Assembly: GCF_037902255.1 (NCBI RefSeq)
Contig: NZ_CP147990.1
Coordinates: forward strand, 720,001 to 752,000
DNA: 32,000 bases
Reading direction: 5' to 3'
Origin: Candidatus Electrothrix sp. GW3-4
GTDB lineage: Bacteria; Desulfobacterota; Desulfobulbia; Desulfobulbales; Desulfobulbaceae
The notes below the pieces were generated by a model that saw only the letters and a program-made list of their open reading frames with translations, was not told the DNA's origin and searched no databases. Every line of letters starts with the position of its first letter. Positions within the stretch are counted from its first letter, which is position 1. A program made the translations under genes and the position numbers. Positions 4,651-29,785 of the stretch are shown one piece after another.

Positions 4651-5259
4651 ATGAAAGCAGTTGTTGTTGAACAGATTGGCGGGTTTCGTCTTGCAGATAT
4701 CCCCTGTCCTGAGCCTGGTCCGGGTGAGGTCCTGATCAAAACCGCTGTCACCGGTATGTGTCGAACCGACCTCAAGATCATCGAGGTCGGGCATCGGGAC
4801 CTGGTCTTGCCCCGGGTCCCTGGGGAAGAGGTGGTGGGCACGGTCTGCGCAGTGGGGCCGGATGTTGCTCCCCAATATATGGGGCAACGGGTCTATGTCT
4901 ATCCCGGGACAAGTTGCGGGCACTGTAAGGCCTGTCTGCAGGGGGCAGGCAACCTCTGCTCCGGGATGCAGATCATGGGCTTCCACCGTGACGGCGGTTT
5001 TGCCGACTATGTCGCAGCGCCAGTGGCAAGCATTATGGCGATCCCGGAGAGCTGTTCCTTTGAGCAGGCAGTAACTGCGGAGCCGCTTTCCTGCTGTCTC
5101 AATGCCCTGGAGTTATCCGAGCTGCAGGCCGGGGAACGGATCGGTATCTGGGGCGGTGGGCCTGCTGGTGCCTTTCTTGCCCGGGCTGCCCAGGCGATGG
5201 GTGCCGAGCCCATAGTCATTGAACCCCATGAAGCACGGCATTGCTATCACGAATCCTGA
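4651..5259 (+). pseudogene. Zinc-dependent alcohol dehydrogenase (MDR family), N-terminal about 60% only
   Basis: The catalytic domain is present (GMCRTDL, structural-zinc CGHCKACLQGAGNLC, GGFADY). The Rossmann fold begins (GIWGGGPAGAFLARAAQAMGAEPIVIEP) and then the frame ends after HEARHCYHES at 202 aa. Intact members are about 330-350 aa. Confidence 0.75.
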
Positions 5260-5843
5260 GCCAGATCCGTTTCGGTACCACCCTGAATATTGCTGCCTCC
5301 CTGGCCAATCCAGCCCGGCCCACCCATGGTCTGCGCGGTGTTTATGCCGAGTCCCTGCTCAAGCCGGTGGCTGAGGTCATGGCCTCTATCGGCTACCAAC
5401 GCGGCTTGGTGGTGCATGGCAAAGCAGACGGACAGGAAGGGGGTATGGATGAGTTGTCGGTCTGCGGTCCTTCCACAGTGTGTGAATTTTCGGACAATGG
5501 GGAAAGGGAAGAGTACAGCCTGGCTCCAGAAGATGTCGGCTTAAAGACAGTACCGTTTGGTGAGATTGCGACCACCGGGGATCTGGATAAGGAGCGAAGA
5601 CGTTTTCTCAGTGTTCTTGCGGGTAAAGGAGAGCAGGGCTGTGTGGATTTTACTTGTCTCAATGCCGGTGCGACCCTCTATGCGGGAGGACGGGCCGAGG
5701 GTATTAGAGAAGGAGTTCAGCTGGCCTCAGAAGCCATTGCCGATGGGTCGGCTCTTGCTAAGCTGAAAGGTTGGGTTGCAGTACAGAGTAACGATGGCAC
5801 CGATGCTGCCGCACATCTTGCCGAGGAACTCGCTGCGTTATAA
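5241..5843 (+). pseudogene. Anthranilate phosphoribosyltransferase (TrpD / glycosyltransferase family 3)-like, C-terminal about 60% only
   Basis: IRFGTTLNIAASLANPA, VVHG...GMDELS and CLNAGATLYAGG correspond to the C-terminal alpha/beta domain of TrpD. The N-terminal helical domain and the GTGGD PRPP loop are absent. This frame is closed by a TGA at 5229-5231, and only a TTG (5241) is available as a start. Confidence 0.75.
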
Positions 5844-5858
5844 GAGGAGAGAAGAGGG

Positions 5859-5898
5859 GAAAAAACAAGGGCAAGACGAACAACCGCTCGTCTTGCCC
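5859..5898 (-). terminator. Rho-independent terminator of the cytochrome transcript
   Basis: A perfect 11-bp stem (gggcaagacga 5869-5879 / tcgtcttgccc 5888-5898) has an 8-nt loop. On the minus strand it is followed by TTGTTTTTTC. Confidence 0.8.
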
Positions 5899-6033
5899 TC
5901 CACAGAGTTCAGCAGCTTAATAACTCCCGTCCCTCCCCCTTGGGGGAGGGGCAATAGTAGATGAAAGTTGAGTAGGACGACTCAAAGGAGTCGACCGGTA
6001 CTTTCATATAAGCCTCTCTGCTGAAGAAAAGGA

Positions 6034-6363
6034 TCAGTCAATCTCGTAGGTGAATTGTTTTTTCTCCGTAAAGATGACATCACCTTTTCCGCCACTGATA
6101 AAGTAGGACAGTTTAACTTCGATCTCAACCTCTTCGGTATCGGTATCAAAGTGCATCAGGTGTTCTACCTTCTGGGTCTGGCTCGGGGGCAGGGTGAGGT
6201 CGATGATCTCTTTGATCTGCCAGGCTCCATAGCGCATATCCCGGTCCATATCAACACCGATCTCGAACCAGGTCTTCTGCGCAGAGTAGAGGATTTGTTT
6301 TTCAGGGTCTTTTTCTTCCAGATTTCGTGCGGTCACATCCAGGACCACTTTGCCTGACCACAG
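6034..6363 (-). CDS. Beta-rich C-terminal segment in frame with the upstream pentahaem cytochrome, separated from it only by a TGA
   Basis: It shares the reading frame of 6364..7341, and there is no further stop between the TGA (6366-6364) and 6034. The sequence LWSGKVVLDVTARN...EVEIEVKLSYFISGG looks like the beta-sandwich domain that normally follows the GHxxP(T/D)G motif. A GTG at 6348 is the only internal restart candidate. Confidence 0.6.
   Translation of the reverse strand: MWSGKVVLDVTARNLEEKDPEKQILYSAQKTWFEIGVDMDRDMRYGAWQIKEIIDLTLPPSQTQKVEHLMHFDTDTEEVEIEVKLSYFISGGKGDVIFTEKKQFTYEID
6328..6362 (-). other. mRNA hairpin starting 1 nt after the in-frame UGA (SECIS-like candidate)
   Basis: On the minus strand UGUGGUCA (6362-6355) pairs with UGACCGCA (6335-6328), giving 8 bp including one G-U. 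An alternative fold has 6 bp plus CAGG/CCUG and a 9-nt apical loop CAAAGUGGU. Confidence 0.4.
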
Positions 6364-7341
6364 TCAGCCGTCCGGGATACGATGTCCCGCCTTGTTCTCA
6401 ACAAAGGCGGTGACCACAGCGCTGGGGACCCAGGCCTTATCGTTTTTCACGCCTTTGATTTTGCCGGGCAGGTGGCGATACTGAGCGAAATTGACCTTGA
6501 GGCCAAGCCCTTTTTTCACCATGTCCAGGTCATGACCACCGGGGAAGAGATGGCTCTTCTTGCCGTTCTTGCCGCCCTTTTCCATATGGCAGTCCTGACA
6601 GGTTTCGGTGCCGCCGTTGTTGGCGTAGGCGTTCTGGAAGCTGCCGGAAAGGGTGTTGCATTGGATGGTCTCTCCGTCCGGTGCCTTGTATTTGCCGTGG
6701 CACTGCATACAGAAAACTGAACGGGTGATATCAACGGTCTCAATGGTCTCATGGGCACCGCCGCTGTCAGCTCCTGTGGGACCGTAAATGGCGCCTTTCT
6801 TGGGGTCTCCGCGCAGACCACGGGCAACCGTGATCGCCTTTAGATTATGACAGGAAACACAGCCGACACTCAGCTTGGATAGCTCTTCTTTCGCCTTCTT
6901 GCCAGCTGGTTTGTCTTTTTCCTTATGGGCCGTAATAACCTTCTCGGCTATTTCTACGGCTAATTTTTCAGATGCATACTGGATTACCGGGGCGTGACAG
7001 TCATAACACTTCATCACCTCGGCCTTGGTTATCGGTTTATTCCACTCTTTGGGAAGACCGATGGCAAAGAAATTATGAATACCTTTTATAGCACCGGGAG
7101 AGACAACCGACTGGGCATGCCAGGACTGCTGCCACTCATCATGAATTTCGGTATGGCATTCACCGCATTTTTTCTCGCCCAGCATTTCGACGAGTTCGTC
7201 AATGGTGTTTGCCTCCTTGGTGACAATGGAGTGCGGGTTCTTGTCGGCTTTTTTGCTTTCTTTTGCCGCAAGAGGTTGAGTGAACAGCATGATACAGCCC
7301 AGTATCAAGCATGTTCGAAACAGCACGGTAACTGCTTTCAT
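6364..7341 (-). CDS. Periplasmic pentahaem c-type cytochrome (cytochrome c554-like multihaem family)
   Basis: It has a signal peptide (MKAVTVLFRTCLILGCIMLFTQPLAAKE). It has five CxxCH motifs (CGECH, CYDCH, CVSCH, CMQCH, CQDCH). A GGAGGA RBS lies upstream. It ends ...ENKAGHRIPDG-TGA. Confidence 0.9.
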   Translation of the reverse strand: MKAVTVLFRTCLILGCIMLFTQPLAAKESKKADKNPHSIVTKEANTIDELVEMLGEKKCGECHTEIHDEWQQSWHAQSVVSPGAIKGIHNFFAIGLPKEWNKPITKAEVMKCYDCHAPVIQYASEKLAVEIAEKVITAHKEKDKPAGKKAKEELSKLSVGCVSCHNLKAITVARGLRGDPKKGAIYGPTGADSGGAHETIETVDITRSVFCMQCHGKYKAPDGETIQCNTLSGSFQNAYANNGGTETCQDCHMEKGGKNGKKSHLFPGGHDLDMVKKGLGLKVNFAQYRHLPGKIKGVKNDKAWVPSAVVTAFVENKAGHRIPDG

Positions 7342-7869
7342 ACGTGTTTTCCTCCGAATAAAGAAAAGTTTTTACCTCAATCCTGATGGTTTCGTAAAAA
7401 GTCCAAAATTGCGAAAAATCGTGTTGTAACTCGCTGAGTAGCCGTTAGCGAATTGCTGTTTTCTGACTTTTTAGCAGGCCATCAATCCTGCTTGATCATA
7501 GCGCGTTCAACACCACCTCCTTTTCTTCAGAGCATTTTTTCTCTTTTTGGGACGTTAGATTAAGCTGTTGGACGATAACGACTTAATCTGAGCCTTTGTT
7601 TAAAATATATATAATACATTGTGGTATGGTTGGATAGGAAGCAAAAAATGATGGAAAAGAGAAAATGTTCGATGAATATTAATGGGCTTCGGGATGAGGT
7701 TGATTGATTTTAATATGAAATAAGCAGGTTATATGGTGAGTCTTGACGGGGAAAAGAGAGGGGCAGGTTGGTTCTTCTCCATGCCCTTGGTTCATCTCTG
7801 TTGATAATTTTTTGAGGACGTGGGGGCGACTATGATGGATGATATCCAGAAGCACGAAAAGAGGACCTT

Positions 7870-21686: not shown

Positions 21687-22346
21687 CTAAAAGCAACATT
21701 CTTCGTAAAAAGTATATTTCTGCCAGTGTGAAACCAAGAAGCCGAGGTAACGTTTATATTCAGGCGAGCTCCTTCTTCTGTGGCAGTCATTGAGTTTCTT
21801 GAGCCATTTTTCATTGGCATAGAGTTTTTTCCACTCCATGCCAATCCCATGCAGATTGAGATAGATCTCAAGGAGAAAGCGACCTATCCTGCCGTTGGCA
21901 TCATAAAACGGGTGGATCTGGACAAAATGCTGATAAAATTTGACGGCCTGATACACGGGCACCTCTGTTCGGGGGATGAGATGGGATATCGCACCCTGCA
22001 CCTCAGCCTTAATGCCTCCTGGTGGAGTGCCCTGAAATTGCTGGCGCGATCCAAAGAGAACAAGGCCATTATTAGGGTCCTGACTCTGGCGATAGGATCC
22101 TGCGTTGGCAAAGATGTCCTCAAAGAGGTAGTAATGGAGAATACAGGGGAGCTGGACAAAGAGTCGTTGGTATTCCTCTGAATGGAGCTGCCTGAGTCTG
22201 GGGATAAAGCTCTCTGTATTTAATTTGTCAAAGCGGGCGTGAACGGTCCGGAGAGCGATATCAAGTGCTGGAGGGCTAGCCACCGGGAAGTCCTCCATAA
22301 GCTCGCGAAAATGGGCCCGATCGTGAGAGTCGCTCCGGTGATGCAA
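21687..22346 (-). CDS. Fic/Doc-family protein (putative toxin)
   Basis: The core motif is HPFYDANGRIGR, a variant of HxFx(D/E)GNGRxxR. The upstream element is IFANAGSYR. The TTG start at 22346 directly abuts the stop of the upstream gene; an alternative ATG lies 16 codons in. Confidence 0.85.
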   Translation of the reverse strand: MHHRSDSHDRAHFRELMEDFPVASPPALDIALRTVHARFDKLNTESFIPRLRQLHSEEYQRLFVQLPCILHYYLFEDIFANAGSYRQSQDPNNGLVLFGSRQQFQGTPPGGIKAEVQGAISHLIPRTEVPVYQAVKFYQHFVQIHPFYDANGRIGRFLLEIYLNLHGIGMEWKKLYANEKWLKKLNDCHRRRSSPEYKRYLGFLVSHWQKYTFYEECCF

Positions 22347-22991
22347 TTAGAGCAGCTCGTCTATCTCACGCAGCAGGTTTTGAAAATCATGCTTGGCTTT
22401 CTGGCTCTGATGCTGATAATCTTCTGCGGTTGGATAGGTGGCAAAGGTTTCAGCCTCTTCTTTATCCATGTCCAAGGTGAAGGAATGCCAGGAATTGGAT
22501 TTCAGGACGTGGAAGGGCTGTTGGGCGGCATTCTGGAGTTTGAGGAAATTTTTGGCAAAGGGCTGGTTGGAATAATAGGTGAAAATTGCCGCATCGCTGA
22601 TAACTGCACTCTCTTCTGCTTCCAACCAAGGAGCCTCATTATGGGTCATTGCACTGAGGGTGAAAGCAGAATAATCGACATAATTATCTAGAATAAAAGT
22701 GAGGATTTGCCCCTGTTCCGGGCTAATGCCTGCGGGTTTTCTTCCCAGAGGGATGACATCCGCCCCGTGCTTTTTATAGGCATTATAGATAGAGGCGTTC
22801 ACTGGGCCATAGGTCCATTTTTCGAAATCGGCCTGGATAAAGGGATGATGTGCCACCAAAGTCCATGACTTGGCATAATAGGCTAGCTTTTGCAGCTTCA
22901 TCGGTGTGATGCCTTTATCCGGATATGCGGCGATGATGAACTGGGCCAGCTCTATGGCATGCAGAGGCTGGGCCTTGGGAACTTCAGTCAT
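22347..22991 (-). CDS. Panacea (DUF4065 / SocA-like) domain protein (putative antitoxin)
   Basis: The N-terminal half (PMKLQKLAYYAKSWTLVAHHPFIQADFEKWTYGPVNASIYNAY...THNEAPW) fits the DUF4065 pattern. It is followed by an acidic C-terminal extension of about 80 aa. Confidence 0.75.
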   Translation of the reverse strand: MTEVPKAQPLHAIELAQFIIAAYPDKGITPMKLQKLAYYAKSWTLVAHHPFIQADFEKWTYGPVNASIYNAYKKHGADVIPLGRKPAGISPEQGQILTFILDNYVDYSAFTLSAMTHNEAPWLEAEESAVISDAAIFTYYSNQPFAKNFLKLQNAAQQPFHVLKSNSWHSFTLDMDKEEAETFATYPTAEDYQHQSQKAKHDFQNLLREIDELL

Positions 22992-23078
22992 GAATGAAAA
23001 GGTATCCTGCTGTACTGGTGGTGTTCTTTTCTGAGTATACGTACGCTTGTTTGCTGAAAAGTATAGCTTTCCAAGTGA

Positions 23079-23107
23079 AATGTACCGTACAAAACGCTTT
23101 GTGTCAA
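23079..23107 (-). promoter_or_regulatory. Sigma70-like promoter for the Panacea-Fic operon (TTGACA-N17-TACATT)
   Basis: On the minus strand the -35 element is TTGACA (23107-23102) and the -10 element is TACATT (23084-23079), with a 17-nt spacer. It lies about 90 nt upstream of the Panacea ATG. Confidence 0.4.
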
Positions 23108-23420
23108 CGTATCTTGCCGAAGTTGGATGGAAAGTCCGTTTTTTGCCTCAGCGGAGATAGGCGCAATATTCATAAAATCTTCAGGAAAATAAGCGGATGT
23201 TCAGGTCTTATTCGTTAACTTTTTTATTCAGGTGATGGCATTGAGTTTGTTGTTGATGAGATGAAGCGGGACGGTGTGCCGTGGACACTTGTAGGCCTTG
23301 GTGGAAGCAGGAAAAAAAACGAGAATTTATCGGGGAAAAAGTACATGAGACGGTTGAGTAAACATTATTGAAATGAAAAATGGGTCATGTGCTGAGCACG
23401 CACCCGGCAAGAACTGGCCA

Positions 23421-23456
23421 TAAAAGAGGGTCGCTGGCATAAGCCTGCGGCCCTCT
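23421..23456 (-). terminator. Rho-independent terminator after the small secreted-protein gene
   Basis: A 10-bp stem (agagggtcgc 23425-23434 / gcggccctct 23447-23456, one G-U) has a 12-nt loop. On the minus strand it is followed by TTTTATGG. Confidence 0.55.
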
Positions 23457-23524
23457 TCTTTGTAGTTATCAATAGCTAAAAATTTATTGGAAAGGTGCCC
23501 TGTGATAGGGTCTATGTATGGATA

Positions 23525-23851
23525 TCACAGACTAATTATCTTAATACCATTACTGCCATCACATGCTTCAATAAAAAACTTTGCTTCAGGTGGTGAGTTG
23601 AAATTGACAGATACTTCTGGCGGGCAGCCCTGGAGCTCTTTTTTCATGAAATCGCTTGAGCTATTCTCTTCTTGAGAAGAAAATTCTACCCGAACAGACT
23701 TTATATTTCTGTTCGATTTCACTATACAGTTGGTTTCATCGAGGGCCTCGCATTGTACACTATACGCATGATCAATATAAGCACCTTGAGCACTTGCTAT
23801 GAATGGTATTGTCAAGAGTAGTCCTGTAAATAATAATATTTTTTGATTCAT
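23525..23851 (-). CDS. Small secreted protein with four cysteines, uncharacterised
   Basis: The ATG at 23851 is preceded by AAAGGAGGAG. It has a signal peptide (MNQKILLFTGLLLTIPFIASAQG). The mature part is about 85 aa with 4 Cys. The gene is AT-rich. Confidence 0.6.
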   Translation of the reverse strand: MNQKILLFTGLLLTIPFIASAQGAYIDHAYSVQCEALDETNCIVKSNRNIKSVRVEFSSQEENSSSDFMKKELQGCPPEVSVNFNSPPEAKFFIEACDGSNGIKIISL

Positions 23852-23949
23852 ATCGTTACTCCTCCTTTTATACAATCGGTAGTTAACCGAATTTGTAAGT
23901 AAACCTCATGGCTTTCTTGTAATATGAGGGTGGAATATATCTCTATTAA

Positions 23950-24144
23950 TTAATTCTCTATAGCTATAAAGTTGTCCTTTATGAGAAAAATATTCTGATC
24001 ACCCGTGAAAAGGAAAAGGATACCGGTAAGCAAAAACAATACGCTCACTAAGCACATGCACCAGGAGAACCCCTTTAAGATGAAATGCAGTGAAAGTGTA
24101 CCCTTTTCTGTAAACTTTATAACTTTTCCTTTATTGTTCAACAT
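23950..24144 (-). CDS. Small single-pass membrane protein (64 aa), uncharacterised
   Basis: The ATG at 24144 is preceded by GGAGGAG at 8-nt spacing. It has one central hydrophobic helix (FSWCMCLVSVLFLLTGILFLF). The gene is very AT-rich. Confidence 0.45.
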   Translation of the reverse strand: MLNNKGKVIKFTEKGTLSLHFILKGFSWCMCLVSVLFLLTGILFLFTGDQNIFLIKDNFIAIEN

Positions 24145-24525
24145 AAGCAGACTCCTCCATATCAGCTTATTTTTTACTTGCAATAATTATACCCGAACAA
24201 CTAAGGGTGAGTCAGTTGGTCTGTTATTTAAGGAGATATTGGTTTTTATAACAACCACATTGTGGTATATTTTTTATTGACGGTAATTAGTTAACAATCT
24301 TGAATGTCAAGAAGATCTGTATAGTTTTTTATTTGTTTTTTTTTTAAAGTTTAATTTTTATTATATAAACGCAAGCAACTCTCCAGGATATCATCAAGCT
24401 GAAGAGGGCCTCAGGTAGGTGTGCATTATGCTTGAGCTAATCAATTCGTAGGGAGGTGGCGAGGGTTTGGAGGTGTTTGGGGGGGCAGGATATGGCCGAG
24501 AGTGTACTGGTCAAAAGGTCAAAAT

Positions 24526-24548
24526 CGAAAAAAGGCCCGTTGGGGGCC
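24526..24548 (-). terminator. Rho-independent terminator about 200 nt downstream of prmC
   Basis: On the minus strand the sequence reads GGCCC-CCAAC-GGGCC followed by TTTTTTCG (plus-strand A-run at 24528-24533). Confidence 0.45.
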
Positions 24549-24756
24549 GTAAGGAGGGTGATTTTGGTCAACTGGGCGAACCAAGAGGCCGTCCGTCGCG
24601 CATAATCAAACCGCGCAGTGATAGGCAATAGAGGGAAGGGTTAGGAATTCTTCTTGTCGGTTAACTTGATCGCACATATGCCAGCTCATAATGTCGGAAA
24701 ATGGTTGTATGTAGCTGGGAAAAGAAATCTGCGAGAAGTTTGTTCTTCTCTGGTTG

Positions 24757-25641
24757 TTAGCTCTGCCGCCGCGCCTGCAAGACCCTGGGGCGTCCAGCCC
24801 AATCATCCACCACCCTGACCTGCTCATAGCCGCCATTCTTCAGAAATACCTGCTCCACCTCCTGCCTGATATCCGCCCCGATCTCCATGAAAAGCCAGCC
24901 GCCTGGTTGCAAGAGGGGGAGGGTATCTTGGCAGATCCGGGCAATGCTGTCCAGGCCGCGCTTACCGCCGGACAGGGCCAGGTGCGGTTCCCAGTCCCGT
25001 ACTTCCGGTTCAAGAGTCAATATATCGTCCGCTTTGACATACGGGGGATTGGTGACAATGAGATCAAAGAGCGGTGTGCAGGAAAAAGCGGTCAGCAGGT
25101 CGGCCCGGAGCAAGTGGATCCGATCATCCAGCTTATGGCAGGAAATATTTTTGTTGGCTACCCTAAGAGCTTCCTGGGAAAAATCGCTGGCAATGACTCT
25201 GCTTTGGGGAAACTTTTTGGCCAGGACAACAGCAATGGCCCCGCTCCCCGTGCAGAGATCCAGGATACGCTGCGGTTGTTGTCCGGTTGCCGCATTGTGC
25301 AGCAACGTGGCAAAACAATGCTCAAGAAGAAATTCGGTCTCCGGGCGGGGAATCAGGACCGCCGGGCTGACAAAGAACTCCAGGGACCAGAATTCACAGC
25401 TGCCGATAATATACTGAAGAGGTTCACGCTGGCAGCGGCGCTGAAGTAATTCTCGGAAACGGTATTCTGTTTTTTGCTCAACAGACTGATCGTGGAGGAG
25501 AAAGAGCTTGCTGCGGGAAATATCAAGGCAATGACGAAGAAGGAGTTCCGCCTCAAGGGCGCTGTCTTCAAGCCCGGCCTCAGCAAGGGTACTTGTTGCC
25601 GAGCGAAGAAGCTGATGAACCAGCATTTTATCATCCGACAT
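24757..25641 (-). CDS. prmC: Release-factor glutamine N5-methyltransferase
   Basis: It has the NPPY motif (IVTNPPYV) and the SAM-binding DLCTGSGAI. It lies directly downstream of prfA. Confidence 0.93.
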   Translation of the reverse strand: MSDDKMLVHQLLRSATSTLAEAGLEDSALEAELLLRHCLDISRSKLFLLHDQSVEQKTEYRFRELLQRRCQREPLQYIIGSCEFWSLEFFVSPAVLIPRPETEFLLEHCFATLLHNAATGQQPQRILDLCTGSGAIAVVLAKKFPQSRVIASDFSQEALRVANKNISCHKLDDRIHLLRADLLTAFSCTPLFDLIVTNPPYVKADDILTLEPEVRDWEPHLALSGGKRGLDSIARICQDTLPLLQPGGWLFMEIGADIRQEVEQVFLKNGGYEQVRVVDDWAGRPRVLQARRQS

Positions 25642-25757
25642 TGGTTGGAAGACCGGAGAAGGAGGTGCAAAGTTCTTGTAGGGGCGATCCTTGTGATAGA
25701 TGCCCTTTCAATTTTACAGGGCAGACACAGGGAGCAGTCCCTACTACCGTCATCACA

Positions 25758-26828
25758 TTAATCGAGATCTTTCAGGGCCTCGGTCTGATAATGGGTGATA
25801 ATAGGCAGAATGATCTCATCAAGGTCGCCGGATATGATCTGATCCAGTTTATAGCAAGTCAGGTTGATACGATGATCTGTGACTCGGCCTTGGGGAAAAT
25901 TATAGGTCCTGATGCGTTCACTGCGGTCACCGCTGCCGACTTGTCCCTTACGGTCCTGGGCAATCTTGTCATGCCGTTCCTGTTCCAGTTTATCCAGCAG
26001 ACGGGCCCGCATCACCATCAGGGCCTTGGCCTTATTTTTATGCTGTGATTTTTCATCCTGACAGGTCACAACCAAGCCCGTGGGCAGATGGGTAATCCGC
26101 ACAGCCGAGTCTGTGGTGTTGACCGATTGGCCTCCTGGCCCGGAAGAGCGATAGACATCGAACTTCAGCTCGTTGGGGGCAATCTGGAGATCCACTTCTT
26201 CTGCTTCCGGGATAATCGCCACCGTCACGGCTGAGGTGTGGATGCGGCCCTGGGTCTCGGTTTCTGGAACCCGCTGGACCCGATGCACCCCGGATTCGTA
26301 TTTCAGGCGGGAGTAGACTTTATCGCCGGAGATCAAGGCAATCAGTTCCTTAAAGCCACCAATACCGATGGGGTTGGAATTCATGACCTCAATTTTCCAG
26401 CCCTGTGCCTCCGCATACCTGGCAAACATCCGGTAAAGATCGGCAACAAAGAGGGCTGCCTCGTCACCACCTGTACCGGCCCGGATCTCCAGGAAGATAT
26501 TCTTCTCATCGTTGGGATCAGGGGGCAGGAGCATTAAACGAATGGCCTTTTCCAGCTCTTCTTTTTGCTCAGACAGCGCTTCCATTTCCTCCTTGGCCAG
26601 TTCCGCCATTTCGGGATCGTTATCTGCATCGTGAATCAGCTCGCGGTTATCCGCTAGATCCTGCTCAACCTTGCTATAGGCTGAGTAGAGTTCATTCAGC
26701 TTGGCAACGCGGGAGTGCTCACGAACGGTTTCCTGATATTTTGTCCGATCGTTGAGCAACTCCGGGTCAGAAAGCTGGCGCTCCAAGGCGGAAAGCTTTT
26801 CATGGATATCAACAAGATTTTCAAACAT
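25758..26828 (-). CDS. prfA: Peptide chain release factor 1
   Basis: It has the GGQ motif ([24 protein letters not shown]) and a PxT-type RF1 architecture. I chose the ATG at 26828 ([12 protein letters not shown]...). Confidence 0.97.
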
Positions 26829-26871
26829 GGATATATCCGGCAGATCTCTTGATTTCGTGTGAAACAAGGAG

Positions 26872-26900
26872 ATAATGATAAGGGGTTGTCAAGCTGTCAA
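26872..26900 (-). promoter_or_regulatory. Sigma70-like promoter for prfA (TTGACA-N17-CATTAT)
   Basis: On the minus strand TTGACA lies at 26900-26895 and CATTAT at 26877-26872, with a 17-nt spacer. Confidence 0.4.
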
Positions 26901-26911
26901 CAAGGAAGAAA

Positions 26912-26942
26912 CAAAAAAACCACATGACAGAGTACTGCCATG
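26912..26942 (-). terminator. Rho-independent terminator after rpmE
   Basis: On the minus strand CATGGCAG-TACT-CTGTCATG forms 8 bp (one G-U) and is followed by TGGTTTTTTTG. Confidence 0.7.
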
Positions 26943-26963
26943 CGGTCTTGGGAAACAGGTCGG

Positions 26964-27182
26964 CTACGCTTTTTTCTGGGCGAGATGCTTGGCGTATTTT
27001 TTCTTGAATTTTTCAATGCGACCGGCGGTGTCAACCAGTTTTTGCTTACCGGTGAAAAAAGGATGGCAGGCGGAACAAATTTCCACCTCTATGCTCTCGT
27101 TCACAGAGCCCAGCTCTACTTCATTACCGCAGGCACATTTTGCCTTGATCTTATGATATTCAGGATGGATATCCGGTTTCAT
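26964..27182 (-). CDS. rpmE: 50S ribosomal protein L31 (Zn-ribbon type)
   Basis: The sequence is [27 protein letters not shown]...[14 protein letters not shown] chose the ATG at 27182. Confidence 0.93.
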
Positions 27183-27355
27183 TGTATTCTCGGCCTCCAG
27201 AGAATATATTCGCATAACAGCGAGTTATTATTTGCGAGTTCTTTTGTACAGGTTGAAAAATAGCTCATTCTACCCGGTTTAACTTTTTTAACAAAGGAAA
27301 AATACCTTAAAAAGATTTTTTTGTCAATCAGAGCTCCTGCGGTGGCAATATAGCA

Positions 27356-28606
27356 TTAGCTATTCATTGAAGCAAAGAATTCCGCATTGGTCTTGGTTTG
27401 CTCCATCTTGCCGAGCAGGAATTCCATGGCATCAGCTGGATTCATAGAGGAAAGCAGTTTGCGTAGGATCCACATCCGGTTCATCTCCTCTGATGACAGG
27501 AGCAGGTCTTCTTTTCGGGTGCCGGATTTTTGGATATTGATGGCCGGATAGATCCTGCGGTCAGACATCTTGCGATCCAGGACAATCTCCATATTACCAG
27601 TTCCCTTGAATTCCTCAAAAATAACATCATCCATCCGGCTGCCGGTCTCGATCAGGGCGGTGGCAAGGATGGTCAGGCTGCCGCCTTCTTCAATGTTTCG
27701 GGCTGCGCCGAAAAACCGTTTCGGACGATGCAGGGCATTGGCCTCCACACCACCGGAGAGGATCTTGCCGGATGCCGGGGTGACGGTATTATAGGCACGG
27801 GCCAGTCGGGTGATAGAGTCCAGCAGGATGACGACATCTTTTTTATGTTCGACCAGTCGTCTGGCCTTTTCAATAACCATCTCCGCCACCTGGATATGAC
27901 GCTGGGGTGGCTCGTCAAAGGTGGAGCTGACCACCTCTGCATCCACGCTGCGCTTCATATCTGTGACCTCTTCCGGTCGCTCGTCGATCAGCAGGACAAT
28001 GGGGATTATCTCCTTATGATTCTTGACAATAGCCCGAGCAATTTGCTGCATAAGGACTGTTTTACCGGTCCGGGGCGGTGCCACGATCAGGCCGCGCTGT
28101 CCTTTTCCCAGCGGGGAGACCATATTCATTATTCTGGTAGAATAATTATCCGGCTCATCCTCAAGATTGATCTGTTCTTCAGGGTGCAAGGGCGTCAGGT
28201 TAACAAAGAGGGTCTTATTATTGGAGGCCTCTGGATCTTCGTAATTGACCTTGTCAACCTTCAGGAGGGCGAAATAGCGTTCATTTTCCTTGGGTGCTCT
28301 GACTTCTCCCTCAATCGTGTCGCCTGTCCGCAGGTTGAGGCGCCGAATTTGGGAAGGGGAGACGTAGATATCATCAGGGCCGGGAAGATAGTTATAATCC
28401 GGTGCTCTGAGGAAGCCAAATCCATCCTGTAATACGTCCAGTACTCCGCTCCCGCGAAGTTTGCCGTCCTCATCGGCCTGCGATTTGAGAATGGCGAAGA
28501 TGAGCTCCTGTTTCCGCATGGAGCTGTATCCTTCAATCTTTAAAGATGCTGCCAGTGCGACAAGTTCTTTGATATTTTTATTCTTTAACTCAGTAGGATT
28601 CATCAA
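27356..28606 (-). CDS. rho: Transcription termination factor Rho
   Basis: It has the N-terminal Rho_N and CSD regions ([14 protein letters not shown]), Walker A (PPRTGKT) and a RecA-type ATPase core, at 416 aa. Confidence 0.97.
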
Positions 28607-29146: not shown

Positions 29147-29785
29147 TTATGGGCCCCAAAAGGCCCCAGAACTCAACAAGTTCTGTACCTGTGAACAGGT
29201 ATGCTCCCAGGGGCCAGAATTGTCCAGCACATGATTCGCAGCTGCGGCCTTTTCACGGAGCGATTGCTGGGCCGCGATGGCCTGTTGGGCCTGCTCCTTG
29301 CTAACTTGATCCCGTTGCATAATACGCTGCAAGCGCACCGCTGTATCTGCATAGACAACAAGGATCAGATCCACGCTTTCCTGCCAACCCGCCTCGAAAA
29401 GCAGGGGAATTTCAGCCAGAACTGGTCCGGAAAAGCTGGAGAGCTGTTTCTTCATTTCCTGGCAGGCAAGGGGGTGGAGTATCCTGTCAACCTGACTCCG
29501 TAAGACGGAATCCGTAAAAAGCCGCTGGCGCAAGCGCTGTCGGTCGAGTTCTTCGTTTTTACTGAAGTATACACTTGGTAGAAGAACCCGGAGGGCCTGC
29601 CAGCCAGCTTCCTGGGGCTGAAGGAGGTCACGACAGACTCTGTCGAGGTTAATCAGCGGTAAGTTATATTTTTCAGCGAGAAAGGAACAGACCCTGCTTT
29701 TTCCTGATCCAATCCCACCTGTGATCCCGATGACTCGCTGTCCGCCCTCGTTCTGTCGTTGACGGGCGGGACGTTTAGGACCCAT
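29147..29785 (-). CDS. coaE: Dephospho-CoA kinase
   Basis: It has the P-loop GITGGIGSGKS and typical CoaE length. Its start overlaps the rluD stop by 11 nt. Confidence 0.9.
   Translation of the reverse strand: MGPKRPARQRQNEGGQRVIGITGGIGSGKSRVCSFLAEKYNLPLINLDRVCRDLLQPQEAGWQALRVLLPSVYFSKNEELDRQRLRQRLFTDSVLRSQVDRILHPLACQEMKKQLSSFSGPVLAEIPLLFEAGWQESVDLILVVYADTAVRLQRIMQRDQVSKEQAQQAIAAQQSLREKAAAANHVLDNSGPWEHTCSQVQNLLSSGAFWGP

Follow-up and report, generated by a model that had tools for sequence, protein, structure and literature searches.

The closest characterised relative of the gene described here is MccSep of Geobacter sulfurreducens (= ExtKL, GSU2937-2936; PDB 9wt8/9wt9/9wta-c), a periplasmic polysulfide reductase with a cleaved 25-residue signal peptide (PMC13510729). 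Its selenocysteine (Sec, U) was proven by ESI-MS in the peptide VEMTNHAGHSIPDGUPTPNR, and its selenium content is 0.96 per subunit (PMC13510729). Both U325 and C239 are essential, activity being lost in the U325A and U325C variants. H122 serves as the proximal and C239 as the distal ligand of the catalytic haem 2, and in the crystal structure, which shows a single chain, the Sec residue projects out of an Ig-like beta-sandwich domain at the C-terminus (PMC13510729). Polysulfide (and selenite) reductase activity and a homotetrameric assembly have been reported for the Geobacter enzyme only (PMC13510729).

In cable bacteria, a "small pentaheme cytochrome" (sPHC) has been described as a conserved structural homologue of ExtKL (PMC11976967, PMC13381530). 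A "two-gene structure", located in a non-Geobacter context, was reported for an Electrothrix strain, the downstream gene encoding an Ig-like domain (PMC11976967), and the protein has been discussed as a cytochrome that may form nanowires or take part in EET (PMC11976967, PMC13381530). Selenocysteine is absent from the text of these two papers, where "selen" occurs in a reference title only, and cable bacteria are absent from the main text of the MccSep paper (PMC13510729). In the literature searched, we found no relevant link between selenocysteine, selenoprotein or MccSep on the one hand and cable bacteria or Electrothrix on the other. The sPHC and the gene presented below belong to the same family and the same organisms, the two being matched by the published description only.

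The gene lies on the minus strand of the window, i.e., the whole stretch of DNA analysed here (32,000 nucleotides from Candidatus Electrothrix sp. GW3-4), and its features are listed in Table 1. As read from the sequence, it forms a continuous frame of 435 codons (7341..6034) whose sole internal stop is the UGA at 6366-6364. The upstream ORF (7341..6364, 325 codons) ends in ...ENKAGHRIPDG before this TGA; beyond it the frame runs through LWSGK to a GTG at 6348 and on to the TGA stop at 6036-6034. An initial annotation of the same DNA had described one frame split by a single UGA, with these ORF ends and the LWSGK link, and each of its statements on the sequence proved correct. It had also placed the only strong terminator after the second ORF. 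Indeed, a minus-strand terminator with a 15-bp stem (5900..5867) and a T-run is found there, and none lies between the cytochrome ORF and the second ORF. The N-terminus is signal-peptide-like by eye, with K/R residues, a hydrophobic core and then LAA/KE. The five CxxCH motifs start at residues 59, 112, 161, 211 and 248, and the list of cysteine positions leaves Cys228 as the sole non-haem cysteine of the mature protein.

Table 1. Features of the Electrothrix gene and its flanks (positions in the window)
Feature	Position	Strand	Basis
Complete gene of the predicted selenoprotein, mccSep/extKL orthologue ("sPHC" of cable bacteria)	6034..7341	-	frame, NF040886, PDB 9wt8/9wt9
Shine-Dalgarno GGAGG, 9 nt 5' of ATG 7341	7351..7355	-	read from sequence
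Probable N-terminal signal peptide, MKAVTVLFRTCLILGCIMLFTQPLAA/KE	7264..7341	-	sequence inspection
Haem motif 1, CGECH, residues 59-63	7153..7167	-	aligned with CIECH of MccSep
Haem motif 2, CYDCH, residues 112-116	6994..7008	-	alignment; His116 = H122
Haem motif 3, CVSCH, residues 161-165	6847..6861	-	MccSep alignment
Haem motif 4, CMQCH, residues 211-215	6697..6711	-	MccSep alignment
Cys228 codon = C239 of MccSep	6658..6660	-	alignment; column invariant in 26/26 sequences
Haem motif 5, CQDCH, residues 248-252	6586..6600	-	MccSep alignment
In-frame UGA, predicted Sec326, motif AGHRIPDG-U-LWSGK	6364..6366	-	codon conservation, ESI-MS of the Geobacter orthologue
Conserved hairpin of putative SECIS type, GUGGUCC-UGGAU-G(U)GACCGC	6329..6348	-	covariation, RNAalifold core, MFE
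Alternative long-range pairing, UGUGGUCA (6362-6355) / UGACCGCA (6335-6328)	6328..6362	-	MFE of 42-nt stretch
C-terminal part, residues 327-435, Ig-like beta-sandwich domain of MccSep	6037..6363	-	alignment to residue 392; dN/dS
Intrinsic terminator behind the gene, which is monocistronic; stem of 15 bp (5900..5867) and T-run	5857..5900	-	

The translated frame matches NF040886 ("multiheme c-type cytochrome (seleno)protein ExtKL"), an NCBIfam equivalog model with a curated cutoff of 250 bits, at 412.7 bits (E 1.3e-123). The match covers residues 20-427 of the protein and positions 13-414 of the 423 in the profile, with the UGA inside the matched span. The crystallised Geobacter MccSep (PDB 9wt8/9wt9) was likewise aligned across the UGA (E 2.5e-38, query residues 39-392), the identity to the crystal chain being 34.4% over 334 columns. 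In this alignment the UGA corresponds to U325, Cys228 to C239 and His116 to H122. The trio of His116, Cys228 and position 326 is conserved, the H116 and C228 columns being invariant in 26 sequences, and all five haem motifs align one by one with those of Geobacter, in the same order. The gene is the Candidatus Electrothrix orthologue of MccSep/ExtKL. The family itself is already known, having been predicted years ago and characterised biochemically and structurally in 2025-2026; a Sec-containing multihaem cytochrome, which the initial annotation had considered unusual, is no longer so if unusual is taken to mean unknown.

Like MccSep, the Electrothrix protein has a probable N-terminal signal sequence, the motif AGHxIPDG-U with the UGA at the aligned codon, and a C-terminal Ig-like domain past the Sec site; in both genes a stem-loop follows shortly 3' of the UGA. 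By sequence comparison, the Ig-like domain is contiguous with the haem domain, the alignment reaching residue 392 of 435. The expectation of the initial annotation that GHxxP(T/D)G opens a C-terminal beta-sandwich domain agrees with the Ig-like domain of the MccSep crystal structure (PMC13510729). Unlike MccSep, the Electrothrix clade carries U-LWSGK in place of U-PTPNR, and the protein contains an extra GGKNGKKS insertion before GHLFPGG. The positions aligned with the Geobacter second-shell residues R83 and K372 are occupied by Ala84 and Gln375/Ile376, respectively; conserved Lys86 and Lys377 sit within 1-2 residues of them, and this clade has an R83 loop that is ~10 aa shorter. Since R83 and K372 have no counterparts at the aligned positions, the substrate could differ from polysulfide. 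The hosts differ as well, a sulfide-oxidising cable bacterium as opposed to a sulfur-reducing Geobacter. More distant is the TsdA and MccA class of sulfur-metabolising multihaem c-type cytochromes, which share His/Cys haem ligation, a catalytic feature, with MccSep. Cytochrome c552 of Thermochromatium tepidum (PDB 5ze8) displays weak N-terminal similarity (E 5.4e-6, residues 50-119). All of these are devoid of Sec, and their similarity is confined to part of the haem domain.

The genomic setting also distinguishes the two genes. Geobacter extKL is found inside extHIJKLMNOPQS, flanked by the rhodanese ExtH, the porin ExtI and ExtJ, and by the cytochromes ExtM and ExtN. This arrangement is absent here: the Electrothrix gene is solitary, no ext-cluster partners were identified by NCBIfam among 20 ORFs of the window, and around the gene lie a GT2 glycosyltransferase gene, gyrB, and fragments of trpD and ADH. 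The related loci are likewise solitary and lie outside any ext cluster. The same window carries an apparent deletion or mis-assembly of ~0.9 kb just downstream of the gene, at the ADH/trpD junction (5230-5270).

In 25 homologous loci, with identities of 27-96%, TGA is found at the same codon as in the present gene and is followed by 103-128 open codons, and a further locus (L037) also carries TGA at the Sec site. The complete genome of Electrothrix strain YB6 (CP178758.1) has this TGA gene as well, as locus L003. Because of this recurrence in 25 other loci and L037, the arrangement exceeds chance. In two Nitrospirota loci (L025 and L027) the site is occupied by TGC (Cys). The comparison of homologous codons, suggested in the initial annotation as a check, thus returned TGA or TGC and no other sense codon, an outcome in favour of Sec. 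One entry considered as a sense-codon homologue (P0157) was rejected, as its own DNA has TGA, and the apparent Trp at the Sec site in one database entry represents TGA translated with genetic code 4. In comparison with Electrothrix relatives, dN/dS is 0.06-0.12 for the N-terminal part and 0.03-0.05 (at dS 0.7-1.7) for the C-terminal part; the segment downstream of the UGA is under strong purifying selection.

A conserved hairpin (6348..6329, GUGGUCC-UGGAU-GUGACCGC) is located 15 nt after the UGA. Its 7-bp stem contains a single bulged U and carries an apical loop of 5 nt, UGGAU, which is reduced to 3-4 nt in GAA variants. Across the homologues it is 95.9% paired, compared with 18-67% for slid controls, and exhibits compensatory changes at three pairs, with one sequence behind each; the RNAalifold core coincides with it. 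None of the apical-loop nucleotides U26, G27, G28 and A29 varies among 21 distinct sequences, and in all loci 22 nt separate the UGA from the apical loop (alignment A1, columns 4-25). The 84 conserved four-fold columns of the gene have a mean third-position entropy of 1.37 bits, and the five lowest values (0-0.26 bits) all fall in hairpin codons 332-337. The nucleotide conservation at the hairpin partly overlaps a conserved peptide, VVL(D/E)VTA.

In the bSECISearch description of a bacterial SECIS element (PMC13188914), the apical loop counts 3-9 nt and the upper stem 4-16 bp; a G stands at loop position 1 or 2, as a rule with G or U after it; the distance from the UGA is 16-37 nt; and the MFE is <= -7.5 kcal/mol. 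Hairpin 6348..6329 agrees on all four points, its 20 nt having an MFE of -7.7 kcal/mol, which is marginal against the -7.5 threshold. At the other Sec-type loci the values lie between -4.9 and -10.0 kcal/mol, whereas in the two Cys-type loci the hairpin is absent (-0.7 and -1.5 kcal/mol). The stability of the 73-nt local fold is in itself unremarkable (z = -0.74, with 38 of 200 shuffles at least as stable). Rfam at gathering thresholds detected no SECIS or other relevant family in the whole window, and a permissive search of 6250-6420 returned chance matches only (serC leader, E 0.32; DLEU2_4, E 1.2). As in E. coli fdhF, an in-frame UGA is followed by a short hairpin within the coding sequence, and the likeness to fdhF-type recoding extends to a G(G/U) that opens a small apical loop 16-37 nt from the UGA. 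Unlike the fdhF element, the hairpin in the present gene is of unrelated sequence, bears a bulged U on its 3' side and has no Rfam model; its SECIS role is putative.

The hairpin that the initial annotation had placed 1 nt past the UGA is a different one. Its pairing, UGUGGUCA with UGACCGCA, does fold, being the ViennaRNA minimum-energy structure of the 42 nt past the UGA (-11.9 kcal/mol), but it is not the conserved element: only 72.6% of it is paired across the homologues, and it is lost in the U-PTPNR clades. Because the 3' arm is common to both, this long-range pairing and the conserved hairpin are mutually exclusive. Judging from the comparison of homologous sequences, function probably resides in the conserved hairpin 15 nt downstream of the UGA rather than in the one 1 nt after it. 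The alternative fold of 6+4 bp in the same annotation, with the apical loop CAAAGUGGU, is a variant of the long-range pairing; it is not conserved, its loop has no G at position 1 or 2, and it was discarded.

The stretch 7341..6034 is very probably one gene, coding for a periplasmic pentahaem c-type cytochrome selenoprotein in which the UGA specifies Sec. Selenocysteine, listed first among the explanations in the initial annotation, is strongly supported by the NF040886 family match, the proven Sec of the crystallised homologue, the alternation of TGA with TGC, the RNA-level selection on the hairpin of SECIS type and the low dN/dS downstream of the UGA. By analogy with the E. coli paradigm, SelB-GTP and Sec-tRNA(Sec) would be recruited by hairpin 6348..6329, with its UGGAU loop, to a ribosome at UGA 6366-6364. 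The product would be an apoprotein precursor of ~48 kDa, and stopping at the UGA would yield a 35-kDa by-product. By homology, the catalytic centre would consist of Sec326 adjoining the His116/Cys228-ligated haem 2, and the enzyme, predicted to act in the periplasm, would probably reduce polysulfide or related S-S or Se compounds with electrons passed via the five haems.

Alternatively, the UGA might be decoded by SECIS-independent read-through, leaky or programmed, by a near-cognate tRNA (Trp, Cys or Arg). The products would then be a cytochrome cut short at 35 kDa and, as a minor form, a longer isoform that lacks selenium. The nucleotide after the UGA is always C in the aligned loci, and UGA-C is a weak termination context in E. 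coli. The marginal stability of the hairpin would also suit such a mechanism, as would the absence of Sec machinery near the gene: selA, selB, selC and selD are lacking in the 32-kb window (ARAGORN; NCBIfam on 20 of its ORFs), no sel genes occur in the fetched related loci, and ARAGORN detected no tRNA-Sec in 28 of these. Nevertheless, we consider read-through very unlikely. The site alternates with Cys codons only, the signature of a Sec/Cys pair, and the hairpin that fits the bacterial SECIS description is lost exactly where TGC stands for TGA. Moreover, the Geobacter orthologue inserts Sec stoichiometrically, as seen from its selenium content and the U-containing peptide in MS, and its position-325 variants are inactive (PMC13510729).

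In a second alternative, the locus encodes two separate proteins, a pentahaem cytochrome that ends at UGA 6366-6364 and a 104-aa partner whose translation begins anew at GTG 6348. Gene callers everywhere produce this picture: public gene calls consist of a 3xx-aa and a ~104-aa ORF, 15 nt apart, the best 120 matches to each half are all split, and those to the C-terminal part are orphans of 85-176 aa. The "two-gene structure" in EMBO Rep 2025 (PMC11976967) points the same way. However, the 15-nt spacer is under selection at the protein level, with no nonsynonymous and at most 3 synonymous changes in the linker LWSGK in comparison with Electrothrix relatives. Other clades have CTG or ACG in place of the GTG, no Shine-Dalgarno sequence precedes this GTG in the Electrothrix gene, and the 104-aa product would be left without a signal peptide although its partner is periplasmic. 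In addition, the Cys-type relatives L025 and L027 are single ORFs, and the crystal structure shows MccSep as one chain in which Sec sits where the domains join (PMC13510729). Two proteins are thus highly improbable; the restart at GTG 6348, also put forward in the initial annotation, is refuted, and the two genes in the databases represent gene-caller artefacts.

The TGA at 6364-6366 could also reflect a sequencing error or a nonsense mutation of recent date, both among the earlier suggestions, or else an assembly error or a pseudogene. Poor local sequence quality or gene decay is conceivable in view of the apparent deletion or mis-assembly just downstream. This reading is scarcely credible and is refuted by the comparative data, as the TGA recurs in 25 independent loci and L037 from differing samples, assemblers and phyla, dN/dS remains low downstream of it at considerable dS, and the NF040886 model is built around the Sec site.

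Compared with the published view of sPHC, the evidence presented here is for one chain that contains Sec and has the catalytic centre of MccSep. Joining the sPHC and MccSep literature suggests a catalytic, selenium-dependent sulfur enzyme in cable bacteria, a connection which is incremental and involves no new kind of system. The point at which electrons from sulfur oxidation enter the system in cable bacteria is still debated. As a speculative proposal on which we place little weight, sPHC may belong to a distinct clade of MccSep (R83 loop deleted, U-LWSGK) and work as a sulfur-redox enzyme that depends on selenium, rather than as a nanowire or EET protein, with possible action on polysulfide or S0 in sulfur oxidation or disproportionation, and conceivably even in the oxidative direction, feeding electrons toward the periplasmic conductive fibres. 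If this were the case, electrogenic sulfur oxidation would require selenium as a trace element.

With respect to annotation, the locus should be recorded as one selenoprotein gene and not as a truncated cytochrome with an orphan 104-aa ORF; public gene calls almost always split the gene in this way. Other in-frame TGA candidates in the window, none of them selenoprotein-like, are antisense or chance continuations.

The gene occupies a single 435-codon frame on the minus strand, whose features are collected in the table below. The initial annotation had described a 325-codon cytochrome ORF, a UGA, five linker codons (LWSGK) and a 104-codon ORF in the same frame, with a strong terminator only after the second ORF. 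Each of these statements was confirmed on the minus strand, and no terminator comparable to the one listed was found between the two parts. The gene is monocistronic, and Cys228 is the sole non-haem cysteine of the mature protein.

Features of the selenoprotein gene and its transcript (window positions unless residues are indicated)
Feature	Position	Strand	Details
Start ATG	7341	minus	Read from the sequence; GGAGG Shine-Dalgarno upstream at 7355-7351
Five CxxCH motifs	Residues 59, 112, 161, 211, 248	minus	All within the 325-codon ORF
Internal TGA	6366-6364	minus	Closes the 325-codon ORF, which ends ...ENKAGHRIPDG
GTG	6348	minus	In frame after LWSGK; 104 further codons
Conserved hairpin	6348..6329	minus	Seven base pairs, one bulged U, apical loop UGGAU
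Final TGA stop	6036-6034	minus	End of the 435-codon frame with its single internal UGA
Terminator	5900..5867	minus	Strong; 15-bp stem and T-run, 3' of the second ORF

Profile searches employed the fused translation, with X placed at the UGA. One NCBIfam equivalog scored far above its threshold: NF040886 (412.7 bits versus a cutoff of 250; E 1.3e-123), named "multiheme c-type cytochrome (seleno)protein ExtKL", the match to which spans residues 20-427 and thus crosses the UGA; Pfam recognized generic multihaem domains only, confined to the part before the UGA. A search of solved structures retrieved the crystals of Geobacter sulfurreducens MccSep (9wt8, 9wt9 and others; E 2.5e-38), aligned over residues 39-392 with 34.4% identity across 334 columns. 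In this alignment, the AGHRIPDG-UGA segment pairs with AGHSIPDG-U325 of MccSep, and His116 and Cys228 correspond to H122 and C239, respectively. All 26 sequences retain the catalytic trio (His116, Cys228 and Sec326). The window protein belongs to a selenoprotein family that has been described before and whose structure is known. Its Geobacter representative, encoded by gsu2937-2936 (extKL), had long been predicted to be a single Sec-containing cytochrome (PMC5877670). Mihara et al. (Sci Adv 2026) found 4.9 Fe and 0.96 Se per subunit of purified MccSep, and detected the peptide VEMTNHAGHSIPDGUPTPNR by ESI-MS. The structure combines a C-terminal Ig-like beta-sandwich with an alpha-helical cap that holds the five haems, and U325 extends from the sandwich to the His122/Cys239-ligated haem 2; the enzyme acts as a polysulfide reductase and is indispensable for S0 respiration, and 394 of its 637 surveyed homologues were retrievable only when TGA was read through (PMC13510729). 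Prokaryotic selenoproteins were reviewed in 2026, and the family is listed there too (PMC13188914).

The initial annotation had asked which codon homologues carry at the UGA site. A genome scan, using one genome per species, yielded 36 loci; those nearest to the window, at 85-96% identity, come from MAGs and genomes of Candidatus Electrothrix, and the window therefore derives from a cable bacterium. The site is TGA in the window, as it is in 25 loci of 27-96% identity, from Electrothrix, Desulfobulbaceae, Desulfocapsaceae, Thermodesulfatator and Nitrospirota, and is followed in each by 103-128 open codons. Two Nitrospirota loci (L025 and L027), both single unbroken ORFs, have TGC (Cys). Sense codons of other kinds are confined to distant proteins of the GHKxPTG type, which fall outside the family (L030, L032). 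One ENA entry (P0157) displays Trp at the Sec site, an artefact of a genetic code 4 gene call, as its DNA reads TGA (L037 287-289). Relative to the Electrothrix homologues (dS about 0.7-1.7), dN/dS is 0.06-0.12 in the haem domain and 0.03-0.05 after the UGA, and the five LWSGK codons show no nonsynonymous and at most three synonymous changes.

Besides selenocysteine insertion, the initial annotation had considered readthrough yielding two isoforms, a recent nonsense mutation or sequencing error, and two proteins with a restart at the GTG. Selenocysteine insertion is supported, and the other three options are refuted or demoted. A restart at the in-frame GTG is ruled out by the site-codon and purifying-selection results; in addition, this position reads CTG or ACG in other clades and is preceded by no Shine-Dalgarno sequence. 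The same two lines of evidence exclude a sequencing error and a pseudogene.

In all Sec-type genes the UGA is followed, at the same distance, by a block that hardly varies, (G/C)UGGUCCUGGAWGUGACCGC. The hairpin that it forms is 95.9% paired across 21 distinct sequences, and its core was recovered by RNAalifold. Compensatory changes, each backed by one sequence, affect three pairs: in locus L022, columns 22/35 change from G-C to A-U, and in locus L028, columns 24/33 change from C-G to G-C and columns 19/38 from G-C to A-U. Only 2 of 500 shuffles matched the pairing and covariation values, and slid controls were 18-67% paired. Since the hairpin overlaps a conserved peptide, third-position entropy was measured in order to separate RNA from protein constraint: over all 84 columns of the gene that belong to a conserved four-fold family, the mean is 1.37 bits, and the five lowest values (0-0.26 bits) all fall in codons 332-337, i.e., in the hairpin. 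The hairpin conforms to the published bSECIS criteria (PMC13188914): the apical loop is 3-5 nt (required, 3-9), the upper stem 7-8 bp (4-16), the UGA-to-loop spacing 22 nt (16-37) and the MFE a marginal -7.7 kcal/mol (-7.5 or lower); the G required in the first two loop positions is represented by invariant G27 and G28. In the two Cys-type genes the hairpin cannot form (free folds of -0.7 and -1.5 kcal/mol; +8.3 and +4.3 kcal/mol with the structure imposed). Local fold stability is no greater than that of shuffled sequence (z = -0.74), and Rfam contains no matching family for the hairpin region.

The initial annotation had placed a hairpin one nucleotide after the UGA, pairing 6362-6355 with 6335-6328. 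This structure does fold, being the thermodynamic optimum in Electrothrix (-11.9 kcal/mol), but the conserved element is instead the distal hairpin, with which it shares the 3' arm. The longer-range pairing is 72.6% paired family-wide and is lost in the U-PTPNR clades, and its 5' arm, beginning one nucleotide past the UGA, would lie inside the ribosomal mRNA channel at the moment when the A site holds the UGA. For these reasons, we interpret the distal hairpin as the SECIS and see in the longer-range pairing a clade-specific alternative. Genes of the Electrothrix/Desulfobulbaceae clade contain the 5' arm GUGGUC at two places after the UGA, namely columns 6-11 (window 6355-6362, minus strand) and columns 19-24 (window 6343-6348, minus strand), and two mutually exclusive hairpins therefore compete for one 3' arm. 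The upstream copy is missing in the U-PTPNR clades.

Sec326 is most likely inserted via SelB and tRNA-Sec, directed by the hairpin. The resulting periplasmic pentahaem selenoenzyme would have an apoprotein precursor of ~48 kDa, against 35 kDa if translation stopped at the UGA. No Sec machinery was found within the 32-kb window or the fetched related loci. With synonymous divergence at saturation, the TGA, the hairpin and the downstream domain are retained in no fewer than seven Electrothrix genomes, which suggests a functional Sec system. Because the catalytic trio is invariant, the best inference is chemistry on S-S or Se substrates at the His/Cys haem with Sec as nucleophile, polysulfide reduction being the specific candidate activity. 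We only infer the substrate and reaction direction, since the clade differs from that of the Geobacter enzyme (U-LWSGK versus U-PTPNR). Moreover, the loop bearing substrate-site R83 is ~10 residues shorter in the window protein, and K372 is not at the aligned position, with conserved Lys86 and Lys377 nearby.

In public gene calls (P0001-P0240), the selenoprotein is consistently split: the best 120 matches to the N-terminal part are all 257-339 aa long, and the best 120 to the C-terminal part are all orphan "hypothetical proteins" of 85-176 aa without Pfam domains. Recognition of the full frame corrects this widespread annotation. NCBI already labels Desulfobulbaceae homologues "multiheme c-type cytochrome ExtKL". 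In cable bacteria, a conserved "small pentaheme cytochrome" (sPHC) was reported as a structural homologue of ExtKL with a "two-gene structure" in one Electrothrix strain, and a relation to cytochrome nanowires was proposed; the text of that paper does not mention selenocysteine (EMBO Rep 2025; PMC11976967). A 2026 Nat Commun paper reuses the sPHC name, and cable bacteria do not feature in the main text of the MccSep paper (PMC13510729). A connection of sPHC with Sec-type MccSep thus appears to be unstated in the literature searched; drawing it points research on cable bacteria to a possible catalytic function of sPHC that depends on selenium.

Gene context is not conserved, even within Electrothrix, and the window neighbours include no ext-cluster partners. 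The window was compared with loci L003, L005, L039 and L040: in L003, the complete YB6 genome, the match is limited to the selenoprotein gene itself, and in L005 and L039 it comes after coaE, the gene at window 29147-29785. The region directly downstream varies by insertions and deletions among Electrothrix. At 4651-5843 (plus strand), ~200 N-terminal residues of a Zn-dependent alcohol/threonine-type dehydrogenase (ADH; profile 1-194 of 341) abut, near 5241-5259, the C-terminal half (profile 163-329 of 330) of an anthranilate phosphoribosyltransferase resembling TrpD. Both genes are whole (329 and 388 aa) in the 96%-related L001, with 924 additional bp at the junction, and the window therefore bears a ~0.9-kb deletion or mis-assembly; L004 and L006 lack the entire ADH-trpD block. 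The genes prmC, prfA (release factor 1) and rho lie consecutively at 24757-28606 (minus strand). RF1 does not read UGA, so prfA has no direct bearing on the recoding. Between prmC and a SocA-antitoxin-like/"mobile mystery protein B"-like pair (21687-22991, minus strand), ~1.7 kb (22991-24757) lacks a convincing ORF and shows the minimum G+C content of the window, 0.39 at 23001-24000; its only notable ORF (23525-23875, minus strand) encodes 116 aa with a signal-peptide-like N-terminus.
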